Under the pieces are notes generated by a model. That model worked only from the letters and a program-made list of their open reading frames with translations, was not told where the DNA came from and did not search any database. A stretch of 22,187 nt of DNA from Escherichia coli (lineage in GTDB: Bacteria; Pseudomonadota; Gammaproteobacteria; Enterobacterales; Enterobacteriaceae), in assembly GCF_003334255.1 (NCBI RefSeq), contig NZ_QOWU01000067.1. One strand, written 5' to 3'. This document shows, piece by piece, positions 2,305 through 5,512 of the stretch; position 1 is the stretch's first letter, and each line of letters opens with the position of its first letter. The position numbers and the translations under genes are program-made.

Positions 2305-2379
2305 AACGGGCAATTTTACGGCCCCTGTTAATCTCAAACTATACCATTAGCACTGGAAGTTGGCACGTACAGGTGGGCA

Positions 2380-2424
2380 AAAAAACGAAAACTGGTCAAC
2401 CAAATATCAGTTTGATTGACCAGT
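2380..2424 (-). terminator. Rho-independent terminator downstream of uxuB
   Basis: Stem ACTGGTCAA (2391-2399) / TTGACCAGT (2416-2424) with an inner CAAA/TTTG pairing; on the minus strand it is followed by TTTCGTTTTTTT (complement of 2380-2390). Lies 24 bp after the uxuB stop. Confidence 0.6.
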
Positions 2425-2447: not shown

Positions 2448-3908
2448 TTACAGCGCAGCCACACACTCGCGCGCACCGCGTTCGCACAGCTGCTGATATG
2501 CCGCCGTCACCGCGCCAACAAAGTCGGCATTCTGCGGCAGATCATCGGCAAAAATACCGCTCAGGCCTAGCAGCGCTTTCACGCGGTCTGCGCCCTGATA
2601 CTGCGCGTTAATCTTCTGGAACTCGGCCAGCATCGGGTCGACCACGTCAATGGCATTACCCTGCTCATCCACGCCCTGGGTGTAACGCATCCAGCCAGCC
2701 ACGCCCAGCGCCAGGTGACGCCAGCTGCCGCCGTTTTGCAGGTGCAGACGCACCGGGTCCAGCAGACGCTGCGGTAACTTCTGGCTGCCGTCCATCGCAA
2801 TCTGCCAGGTACGGTGACGCAGAGACGGGTTGCTGAAACGCTCGATCAGCAGCGTCGCATAGGCGTTCAGGTCCGTACCTTCCGGCATCGACAGCGTTGG
2901 CGCTTGTTCCTGCATCATCAGGGCAAAGGCCGCTTTGCGATAATCCGGGTTAGTCATGGTGTCGGCAATAGTTTCATAGCCGCCGAGGTAACCGAGGTAC
3001 GCCAGGAAAGAGTGGCTACCGTTCAGCATACGCAGCTTCATCATTTCGAACGGCACAACGTCTGCAACGAACTGTGCGCCCACTTTATCCCAGTCCGGGC
3101 GACCATTAACGAAATTATCTTCAATCACCCACTGACGGAACGGTTCGCAGGCAATGGCGCACGGGTCGTAAACGCCCAGCTGGTCAGCAATTTCCTGTAA
3201 GGTTTCTGGCGTCGCCGCCGGAACGATGCGGTCAACCATGGTGCACGGGAAGGTGACGTTCTCTCCAATCCATGCCGCTAGCTGCGGGTCACGCGCCTGA
3301 GCCAGCCCCAGTACCGCGACCTTCGCCACATGACCGTTTTCACGCACGTTATCGCAGGACATCACCGTAAATGCTTTCAGCCCTTTTTCACGACGCAGAC
3401 GCAAGGCTTCGACGATGTAACCAATCGCGGACTTCGGCGCAGTCGGGTTTTCCAGATCGTGCTTGATCAGCGGGTTATTGAGATCCAGTTGACCGCTTGC
3501 CGCATCAGCGCAGTAGCCTTTTTCCGTGACCGTCAGAGAGACAATCGCCGTTTGCGGACGCGCCATCGCGTTGAGAATACCTTCGCAGCCGTCGATTTCC
3601 GGGTGCAGCGCTTCTTTCATCGAACCGATAATTTTCAGCTCGGTGCTTTCCGCGCCTTTTTCCGCCACGGTGTACAGCAGTTGCTGTTTTTTCAGGTTTT
3701 CGATCAGCACGCGGTCGTTGCCTGGCATCAGGTTAACTTCGCAGATACCCCAGTCGCTGTCGGTGCTTTCCAGCAGATGATGGGTGTACAGCGCCTGGTG
3801 CGCACGGTGAAACGCCCCGCAACCGAGATGCACAATGCGTGATTCCAGACGAGAATGATCCCATGACGGGCGGGCAACCGGCAGATTGCTGTCAACAATA
3901 GTAGTCAT
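2448..3908 (-). CDS. uxuB: D-mannonate oxidoreductase (fructuronate reductase), UxuB (486 aa)
   Basis: Full-length ORF MTTIVDSNLPVARPSWDHSRL...; N-terminal Rossmann-type GCGAFHRAH region typical of the mannitol dehydrogenase family; ATG at 3908-3906; directly downstream of uxuA. Confidence 0.95.
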   Translation of the reverse strand: MTTIVDSNLPVARPSWDHSRLESRIVHLGCGAFHRAHQALYTHHLLESTDSDWGICEVNLMPGNDRVLIENLKKQQLLYTVAEKGAESTELKIIGSMKEALHPEIDGCEGILNAMARPQTAIVSLTVTEKGYCADAASGQLDLNNPLIKHDLENPTAPKSAIGYIVEALRLRREKGLKAFTVMSCDNVRENGHVAKVAVLGLAQARDPQLAAWIGENVTFPCTMVDRIVPAATPETLQEIADQLGVYDPCAIACEPFRQWVIEDNFVNGRPDWDKVGAQFVADVVPFEMMKLRMLNGSHSFLAYLGYLGGYETIADTMTNPDYRKAAFALMMQEQAPTLSMPEGTDLNAYATLLIERFSNPSLRHRTWQIAMDGSQKLPQRLLDPVRLHLQNGGSWRHLALGVAGWMRYTQGVDEQGNAIDVVDPMLAEFQKINAQYQGADRVKALLGLSGIFADDLPQNADFVGAVTAAYQQLCERGARECVAAL

Positions 3909-3988
3909 CGTAAACTCCAGAATCCGTCTTCAGAGAGTGACGGCAAGGAAGAAGGAACCGGCACGGCGCGCAGCCATGCCGGTGGATA

Positions 3989-5173
3989 TTAACGGCTAAA
4001 GAAAGCGCGCTGGATCGCCAGTTCGACACCGCGAACTTCGGCCAGGCCTTTCAGACGACCAATTGCGGAGTAACCTGGGTTGGTTTTCTTCTTCAGGTCG
4101 TCCAGCATCTGATGACCGTGGTCCGGACGCATCGGGATCAGGTCTTCTTTGCCTTCCGCTTTACGACGGTGTTCTTCTTCAACAATCGCTTTCACCACTT
4201 CGTACATATCAACGTCACCATTCAGGTGCGCCGCTTCGTGGAAGGTTTTCGGGTTATCTTCACGCATGGTGGAGCGCAGATGGGTGAAGTAAATACGCGG
4301 ACCGAACTGCTTGATCATATCAACCAGATCGTTGTCAGCACGCACGCCGTAGGAACCGGTGCACATGGTGAAACCGTTCGCCATGCTATTTACGGTATCA
4401 ACCATCCACTGCATATCTTCAATGGTAGAAACAATGCGCGGCAGGCCGAGGATTGGGCGCGGCGGATCGTCCGGGTGAACAGCCATACGCACGCCAACTT
4501 CTTCGGCAACCGGAATAATCGCCTTCAGGAAGACGGCAAAGTTTTCGCGCAGTTTGGCTTTGTCGATATCTTTGTACAGCTCCAGGTGCTTACGGAACTG
4601 GTCGAGGGTGTACCCTTCTTCCGCGCCCGGCAGACCGGCAATGATGTTACGGGTCAGACGCGCTTTGTCTTCGTCGCTCATAGTGGCGAAGCGTTCAGCT
4701 GCCTGAGCAATTTCTTCTTCGGTGTAATCCGCTTCCGCACCTGGGCGTTTCAGGATATGCATTTCGAATGCAGCGAATTCGATCTGGTCGAAGCGCAGAG
4801 CTTTGGAGCCGTCTGGCAGCACGTATTCGAGGTCAGTACGGGTCCAGTCGAGCACCGGCATGAAGTTGTAGCACACGGTGCGAATACCGCACTGCGCCAG
4901 GTTGCGCAGAGTCTGCTGATAGTTAGCGATCCACTGCTCATAGTTGCCAGTGTGGGTTTTGATATCTTCGTGAATTGGCACGCTTTCTACGACAGACCAC
5001 ACCAGGCCTGCATCTTCAACGATAGCCTTGCGTTTGAGGATCTCTTCTACGGACCATACTTCACCGTTCGGGATATGGTGCAAAGCGGTAACCACGCCAG
5101 TCGCGCCCGCCTGACGGACATCAGCTAAAGAAACCGGATCGTTTGGGCCGTACCAGCGCCAGGTCTGTTCCAT
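3989..5173 (-). CDS. uxuA: D-mannonate dehydratase, UxuA (394 aa)
   Basis: ORF 3989..5209 trimmed to the internal ATG at 5173 ([14 protein letters not shown]...), which is preceded by an AGAGGA Shine-Dalgarno on the minus strand; the longer N-terminal extension has no RBS. Confidence 0.93.
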
Positions 5174-5339
5174 GATTTTTCCTCTTTCACATAGTGGGTT
5201 CCACAGCAAAGAGACGCGGAACCCTGGAGTTGTTTAGGTATCCGGATGAACAACCAGACCGCAGCCGTGGCGTTGCATCGGATGAGATGGCGTATAAGTT
5301 CTACCTTTTGGTAAGACATGTCAACCCGAATTCTGAAAT

Positions 5340-5349
5340 TGGTTAACCA
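5340..5349. promoter_or_regulatory. Candidate UxuR/ExuR operator (TGGT-N2-ACCA palindrome) in the uxuA-gntP divergent region
   Basis: Perfect palindrome TGGTTAACCA embedded in AAATTGGTTAACCAC; FadR-subfamily GntR regulators bind TGGT..ACCA-type palindromes, and uxuAB and gntP are UxuR-regulated. Motif assignment is from memory, not a PWM scan. Confidence 0.45.
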
Positions 5350-5425
5350 CATCACAAGAATTTCACTCTCCTGGTTGTTGCTGCAAATTGCAGCAAAAGG
5401 TAATCGATGGTTATTGATCAGAGGA

Positions 5426-5441: not shown

Positions 5442-5444
5442 ACA

Positions 5445-5456
5445 ATGGTTGACCAA
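5445..5456. promoter_or_regulatory. Second candidate UxuR/ExuR operator (ATGGTTGACCAA)
   Basis: TGGTTGACCA has the same TGGT-N2-ACCA geometry as the site at 5340-5349; lies about 60 bp upstream of the gntP ATG. Confidence 0.4.
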
Positions 5457-5512
5457 TTTACATAACATGTCGCCCAAAATAACAACGGTTCAACCAGGTA
5501 AGGTAAAACGTT

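Follow-up and report, generated by a model that had tools for sequence, protein, structure and literature searches.

The window analysed here, a stretch of the Escherichia coli chromosome of 22,187 bp, carries yjiC, uxuR, uxuB, uxuA, gntP, fimH to fimB, and then nan genes, as judged from the list of open reading frames and the annotation, and 4.2 kb of it are 100% identical to several complete genomes. The uxuA, uxuB, and uxuR genes are located on the minus strand, which is referred to as the sense strand throughout. The start codon of uxuA is at 5173; uxuB, encoding fructuronate reductase, occupies positions 2448–3908 (open reading frame and annotation of identical E. coli genomes); and uxuR, encoding a repressor of the GntR/FadR family, occupies positions 1460–2233 (open reading frame and genome annotation). 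The spacer between uxuB and uxuR is 217 nt long in the window, with the uxuB stop codon counted in. The 80-nt intercistronic gap between uxuA and uxuB holds a GC-rich hairpin of its own (3957–3983, minus strand; 11 bp, −22 kcal/mol, z = −4.5), which is followed by the pyrimidine-rich TCCTTCTTCC instead of a T-tract and may be an mRNA-stabilizing or attenuating structure within the uxuAB operon. An Rfam match to the DnaX frameshift element at 3929–3987 was discarded as spurious.

Downstream of uxuB there is a stem-loop at 2391–2424 (minus strand), which begins 23 nt past the stop codon of uxuB and was recognized by a scan for terminator-like structures, by folding, and by genome comparison as the predicted terminator of uxuAB. 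Its arms, ACUGGUCAAUCAAA and UUUGGUUGACCAGU on the sense strand, form 14 pairs without interruption, including one G·U pair, around a loop of 6 nt. The original prediction had given the arms as ACTGGTCAA (2391–2399) and TTGACCAGT (2416–2424) on the plus strand; both are present at these positions, and only the extent of the stem was understated. The stem is A/U-rich, with G-C in 5 of the 14 pairs. It is followed by the T-tract TTTCGTTTTTTT (2379–2390, minus strand), evident in the sequence and in the terminator-like scan, which is interrupted and reads UUUCGUUUUUUU after the stem on the sense strand. The hairpin folds with an energy of −18.3 kcal/mol (z = −5.5 relative to shuffled sequences), whereas the antisense strand folds worse (−15.8 kcal/mol) and contains a C·A mismatch. 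No Rfam family was found on the hairpin. A stable stem-loop joined to a U-rich tract, situated just past the last gene and with its pairing kept in evolution, is what characterizes an intrinsic terminator.

The 3′ arm of this hairpin contains a UxuR/ExuR-type box at 2393–2402, TGGTCAACCA on the plus strand and TGGTTGACCA in the direction of uxuR, which was identified by its core, by matrix score, and by comparison, and is a candidate operator of uxuR. The predicted distance of about 160 bp from uxuR is correct, since 160 bp separate the end of the box from the uxuR start codon (2233). Sites of the UxuR group conform to TKGT-N2-ACMA, with GT and AC two bases apart (PMC4494728). The core of the box and its A/T-rich flanks (TATT and GTTT) have the sequence characteristic of UxuR and ExuR operators. 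Exact TGGTNNACCA (TGGT-N2-ACCA) occurs three times in the window versus 0.28 times expected, and none of 100 shuffled sequences reached three. The other two exact sites, TGGTTAACCA at 5340–5349, used here as the reference UxuR box, and TGGTTGACCA at 5446–5455, are both located in the gntP-uxuA spacer, so that the geometry is indeed the one seen upstream of uxuA.

The scan with a position weight matrix, which had been suggested along with the prediction, was carried out with the UxuR matrix of RegulonDB v7 (four sites, width 15; supplementary file 25 of PMC4344238). The terminator-arm box (2390–2404) scored 18.9 bits out of the possible 22.3 and ranked third among 44,346 positions, although the matrix has only four training sites, which may include the box at 2393–2402 itself (the column frequencies are compatible with that). 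It was preceded by the two boxes of the gntP-uxuA spacer, with 22.3 bits (5337–5351, approximately the maximum possible) and 20.1 bits (5444–5458), and followed by a match of 16.1 bits. Chance alone would give 0.004 matches of at least 18.9 bits per window, or 4e-5 in the 217-bp spacer. The occurrence of TGGT-N2-ACCA in the terminator arm is more than chance. The 5′ arm of the hairpin carries an imperfect copy of the box at 2413–2422, TGGTCAATCA in the direction of uxuR and TGATTGACCA on the plus strand, with one mismatch and a distance of 20 bp from centre to centre. Its score is 13.3 bits; chance alone would yield 0.48 such matches per window. A near-copy in this arm is necessary because the box is itself palindromic.

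The fourth-best match of the window is located in the fimB-fimE intergenic region, about 60 bp past the fimB stop codon, where AATGATTAACCATTT at 15110–15124 (core TGATTAACCA, one mismatch) forms a UxuR-like candidate box with 16.1 bits and a chance expectation of 0.07. Motility and biofilm phenotypes have been associated with UxuR and ExuR in the literature, but no sign of UxuR binding was found for the fimB-fimE site.

The uxuR promoter was placed by a promoter scan at 2338–2366 (minus strand) and consists of the −35 element GTGCCA, a 17-nt spacer, and the extended −10 element TGgTATAGT. The same GTGCCA-17-TATAGT was assigned to the uxuB-uxuR spacer by genomic SELEX with the RNA polymerase holoenzyme (PMC3946193), and the extended −10 element (TGnTATAGT) is conserved across the Enterobacteriaceae examined. 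We infer a transcription start near 2331. Relative to this start, the box would cover about −71 to −62, with its center at about −66.5, the T-tract about −59 to −48, and the copy in the 5′ arm would be centered at −86.5; the box ends 49 bp before the −10 element. The box is therefore in the control region of a regulon gene, at a position unusual for a repressor. Its TTGACC was ruled out as a −35 element in E. coli, with no −10 element 16–18 nt away. A search by eye for a CRP site between the box and the −10 element gave no convincing candidate.

The inferred 5′ untranslated region of uxuR is about 98 nt long and includes a REP element (2256–2301), seen as a sub-threshold Rfam match to naRNA4 (40 bits). 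In other E. coli strains and E. albertii (L001–L003, with the REP region at 2830–2990 of these loci) it is about 55 bp longer, and the spacer measures 271–272 nt versus 217 nt in the window; the length of the uxuR leader is polymorphic because the insert in the REP region differs between strains. Just past the REP element, 19–33 nt before the uxuR start codon, there is a further UxuR-like site, ATTTGATTAACCGCA at 2252–2266 (10.6 bits). It was rejected as a secondary operator, since it is kept only in Escherichia, its spacing shifts with the REP insert, and about three such matches are expected per window.

The comparison of motif conservation with stem conservation that the prediction had called for was made across 80 uxuR loci, one genome per species, and both proved to be kept, for separable reasons. 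The uxuA-uxuB-uxuR gene order is present in 20 loci, belonging to Escherichia, Citrobacter, the Klebsiella oxytoca group, Klebsiella sp. BIGb0407 with a related MAG, and Atlantibacter, and the spacers fall into three designs. The first, found in Escherichia, Citrobacter, and Klebsiella, has the box as the 3′ arm of the hairpin. In Klebsiella sp. BIGb0407 (L017) and the MAG (L016), uxuB is followed by an unrelated GC-rich hairpin and then by TTTGGTTAACC(A/T). In Atlantibacter, there is a different hairpin and no box.

Pairing within the first design is nearly complete. Among the 210 pair cells of 15 sequences, 99% are paired, compared with 16–50% when the partners are slid by 1–3 columns. Two pairs have changed on both sides, one being U-A in Escherichia versus G-C elsewhere and the other having turned from A-U to C-G in K. 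michiganensis. The covariation score is 0.182 (versus 0.118 in shuffles, with 0 of 500 shuffles as high); independent compensatory events number only about two. In each of the five pairs with variation on one side only, the changes that preserve pairing are on the 5′ arm (C/U facing a constant G, A/G facing a constant U), and the sole 3′-arm substitution in these pairs, from G to A in L005, disrupts pairing. None of the 20 wobble cells was resolved by a substitution in the 3′ arm, though the RNA would tolerate G-to-A or U-to-C as neutral changes; pair counting showed that the TGG of the box is paired via wobble in Klebsiella. Since G·U pairs are valid only in the sense RNA, the compensatory and wobble changes point to selection on the uxuAB transcript and support a real terminator. 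In Escherichia and Citrobacter, the stem is succeeded by a T-tract. The 8 Escherichia sequences do not differ in either arm, and their hairpins vary at three loop positions only; an identity of at least 99% over 131 bp was found for 4,765 of 5,401 E. coli genomes.

The two arms differ in their rate of change. The 3′ arm evolves far slower than the 5′ arm, which fits a second, DNA-level constraint, although such asymmetry is partly expected without any protein constraint, because G/U-rich 3′ arms tolerate partner changes by wobble. The copy of the box in the 5′ arm reads GGGTCAATCA in Citrobacter and GGGTCAACTG in Klebsiella, i.e., it has drifted from the motif with its pairing kept, and is probably constrained by RNA pairing rather than by protein binding. 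The pattern named in advance as evidence against an operator was a stem kept while the motif is broken. The compensatory change observed in Citrobacter and Klebsiella (T-A to G-C) alters just the outermost base of the box, from ACCA to ACCC, and TGGTTGACC is invariant, so the motif has not been broken.

The box is also conserved apart from the stem. An orthologous box was found upstream of uxuR in most of the 80 loci, and the 400-nt upstream regions of these loci (32 kb in total) contain 25 exact boxes, nearly all of them oriented TGGT-TG-ACCA. The oriented box extends over Enterobacterales and Vibrionaceae, including Edwardsiella, Morganella, Providencia, Photorhabdus, and Vibrio (AGGTTGACCA). 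Three loci (L009, L016, and L017) have the box with no complementary arm, the conservation to be expected of a UxuR/ExuR operator. Salmonella enterica subsp. arizonae (L009) has a divergent gene upstream, and TTTTTGGTTAACCAGTTT is located 48 bp before TGCTATAGT; a homologous T-rich stretch follows the box despite the lack of a co-directional upstream gene. In Klebsiella sp. BIGb0407 (L017), the box is outside any stem and ends 49 bp before a conserved −10 element of the TGC-TA.. type, whereas the −10 element is degenerate in the MAG (L016); the boxes of both loci are at −103 from the uxuR start codon. The occurrence of the same box with or without a stem, out to Vibrio, argues for an old autoregulatory operator of uxuR.

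The position of the box relative to the promoter varies between lineages. In Photorhabdus (L051), Vibrio (L071), and Klebsiella sp. BIGb0407 (L017), the best sigma-70-like uxuR promoter takes TTGACC or TTAACC of the box as its −35 element, 16–17 nt away from TATTAT or TATGAT. A −35 element embedded in the box in this way is the arrangement classically associated with autorepression through promoter occlusion. Unlike these three loci, Citrobacter and Klebsiella have no −10 element 16–18 nt past TTGACC. The distance between the box and the −10 element is 48–50 bp in Escherichia, Salmonella, Klebsiella, and BIGb0407, 29 bp in Citrobacter, and 7 bp in Cedecea (window positions 2338–2402; loci L004–L011, listed as Citrobacter; and L038, L040, and L042, representing Cedecea and Enterobacter sp. 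Ag1). With steps of about 20–22 bp between the gaps, the box would face roughly the same side of the helix throughout, which is suggestive only, because there are just three independent gap classes.

No box was found in the Atlantibacter spacers (L018, L019, L021, and L022, including the record named Citrobacter freundii M-21) with up to one mismatch allowed. These four loci keep the uxuB-uxuR synteny and the −10 element TGCTATAGT, and their terminator is an unrelated GC-rich hairpin. Autoregulation of uxuR may have been lost or moved in the Atlantibacter lineage. Inverted repeats of the box, TGGTTGACCA-N12-TGGTCAGCCA, are located upstream of uxuR in Pantoea sp. (L036, positions 2858–2889 of the locus) and Erwinia psidii (L039, positions 2859–2890). 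The perfect copy is the 5′ arm there, and no clear T-tract follows. In E. psidii, the only one of the two in which the gene was identified, the repeat lies 16 nt past the stop codon of uxaC, encoding glucuronate isomerase (NCBIfam NF002794). The two loci may represent an independent second case of boxes at the junction between an operon and its regulator gene.

Genomic SELEX with purified UxuR identified the gntP/uxuA spacer as a target (PMC5934670); the text of that study mentions "only a single-specific site" for UxuR, the figure legend gives two sites in the operon, which makes the count ambiguous, and uxuR is listed there as a member of the RegulonDB UxuR regulon. Both UxuR and ExuR are autorepressors (PMC9369180). 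The supplements of PMC4494728 and PMC11806353 contain no list of UxuR sites. A search of the literature texts for the box sequence or the uxuR promoter gave no relevant match. Autoregulation of uxuR has been known since the 1980s, and Rodionov et al. reportedly predicted a UxuR/ExuR box upstream of uxuR in 2000. The box at 2393–2402 is presumably the site that RegulonDB and RegPrecise carry for uxuR. To our knowledge, the overlap of this box with the uxuB terminator has not been described explicitly.

The known autorepression, the conserved promoter, and the presence of only one strong box in the spacer argue that a single element probably acts both as the terminator of uxuAB at the RNA level and as an operator of uxuR at the DNA level. 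This agrees with the dual role put forward in the original prediction, which is now supported by covariation in the RNA and by the fact that the box is conserved whether or not it belongs to a stem. Some of the data do not favor it: the center of the box at about −66.5 is outside the core promoter, and the −10 partner of a box-embedded −35 element is absent in E. coli; in the lineage that has the box in a stem, the pairing of the RNA might suffice to account for its conservation; Citrobacter and Klebsiella carry ACCC in place of ACCA; and Atlantibacter keeps the gene pair and the −10 element without the box.

The same observations give some weight to the view, which we regard as rather unlikely, that the hairpin is nowadays only a terminator, its 3′ arm descending from an old operator and being kept solely for the stem, with autorepression exerted elsewhere or indirectly. 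The remote location of the box from the GTGCCA-17-TATAGT promoter, the lack of a suitably spaced −10 element in E. coli, Citrobacter, and Klebsiella, the change to ACCC, and the viability of the arrangement without a box in Atlantibacter are all compatible with a relic, as is the single UxuR site in the gntP/uxuA spacer named in the SELEX text (PMC5934670). However, autorepression of uxuR has been reported in E. coli K-12 itself (PMC9369180), and the terminator-arm box is by far the best in the spacer, the mirror copy and the site at 2252–2266 being the next. An arm kept solely for the stem would also be free to resolve wobble pairs, yet none of the 20 wobble cells contains such a 3′-arm substitution. 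Furthermore, the gaps of 7, 29, and 48–50 bp keep roughly one helical face, and the boxes of S. arizonae and Klebsiella sp. BIGb0407 are found at an equal distance of 48–49 bp with no role in a stem.

A very unlikely explanation is that the two boxes, 20 bp apart, are mainly a double operator, with a dimer on each box and both dimers on one helical face, so that the hairpin would be an unavoidable by-product and termination incidental. The one-mismatch copy in the 5′ arm would serve as the second box, and the box pairs of Pantoea sp. and E. psidii, located after an upstream stop codon and followed by a poor T-tract, would be parallels. Nevertheless, the 5′-arm copy leaves the motif in Citrobacter and Klebsiella, and all changes keep the RNA pairing; the stems of Escherichia and Citrobacter are followed by a T-tract; and the score of the copy is one that is expected by chance in about every second window and is here forced by complementarity. 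That an ordinary terminator stem merely happens to contain TGGT-N2-ACCA, with no link to UxuR, as the original prediction had allowed, is hardly credible: short palindromes can arise inside stems, which are inverted repeats, but the motif is in excess, a match of this strength is expected only about 4e-5 times in the 217-bp spacer, and the same oriented box occurs upstream of uxuR in dozens of genera, including relatives with no hairpin around it.

Under the dual terminator and operator reading, the 45 bp at 2379–2424 would be read in two ways, as RNA and as double-stranded DNA. As RNA, the 14-bp hairpin and the U-tract at the 3′ end of the uxuAB transcript would stop transcription before uxuR. 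As DNA, the 3′ arm TATTTGGTTGACCAGTTT would be the ancestral UxuR/ExuR operator of uxuR, which a repressor dimer would occupy when neither fructuronate nor glucuronate is present, thereby lowering the activity of the uxuR promoter 49 bp downstream; occupancy of the box would then correspond to the known autorepression of uxuR. A dimer at −66.5 would leave the core promoter uncovered and may act by blocking contacts of alpha-CTD with the adjacent T-rich DNA, as the T-tract could double as an UP-like element of the uxuR promoter. Alternatively, the dimer may function jointly with the weaker mirror box at −86.5. It is also conceivable, albeit distinctly unlikely, that an interplay between UxuR and the T-tract couples termination of uxuAB to the activity of the uxuR promoter, by the alpha-CTD block or by roadblock and read-through. 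In evolutionary terms, the terminator appears to have been assembled around an older operator: a lone box of the kind seen in Photorhabdus, Vibrio, and BIGb0407 would have acquired a 5′ arm and a T-tract around it in the lineage of Escherichia, Citrobacter, and Klebsiella.

The element resembles several known systems, each with certain differences. It shares with the other operators of the UxuR/ExuR hexuronate regulon the TGGT-N2-ACCA core and the A/T-rich flanks (TATTTGGTTGACCAGTTT versus ACAATGGTTGACCAATTT and GATGTGGTTAACCAATTT), as well as the location upstream of a regulon gene and conservation across genera, and differs from them in being placed inside the hairpin of the preceding operon, about 66 bp upstream of the inferred start, whereas the orthologous uxuR boxes of other genera overlap the −35 element. 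With the intrinsic terminators of E. coli it has in common a stem-loop joined to a U-tract, the short distance of 23 nt to the stop codon, and compensatory changes between genera; in contrast, its stem is A/U-rich (5 of 14 pairs are G-C), its U-tract is interrupted (UUUCGUUUUUUU), and one arm is slow-evolving. In the lac system, the auxiliary operator O3 is found at the end of lacI, the transcripts of which are terminated by bound LacI acting as a roadblock. The lacI-lacZYA arrangement is thus alike in having the operator of a local repressor where transcription of the upstream gene ends, with one site serving two units, but the gene order is reversed, the catabolic operon being upstream of the regulator in uxu, and termination of uxuAB would proceed via an RNA hairpin and not via a bound protein. 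The box pairs of Pantoea sp. and E. psidii are also two-box inverted repeats after the stop codon of a co-directional gene and upstream of uxuR, and differ by having the perfect box as the 5′ arm, a 12-nt loop, and no clear T-tract.

The finding is already known in substance, because autorepression of uxuR is long established, and the overlap with the terminator is an incremental addition, a neat if ordinary example of how signals can overlap in a well-studied regulon. It is of relevance for annotation pipelines in which terminators and operators exclude each other, and for deletions or replacements of uxuB (e.g., of the Keio type), which keep or remove the element and may thereby change the expression of uxuR. 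If the coupling of termination to promoter activity were true, induction would set the synthesis of the repressor via both promoter release and read-through, and the phase-preserving gaps of 7, 29, and 48–50 bp would reflect a face-specific contact with RNA polymerase. The added value of the overlap is that one arm would be held by protein recognition, whereas the other tracks it via wobble and compensatory changes to keep the terminator. The uxuR upstream regions can be arranged into an evolutionary series, which would lead from a lone box overlapping the −35 element (Vibrio and Photorhabdus), through a box abutting a separate terminator (BIGb0407), to a box that has become an arm of the terminator (Escherichia, Citrobacter, and Klebsiella).
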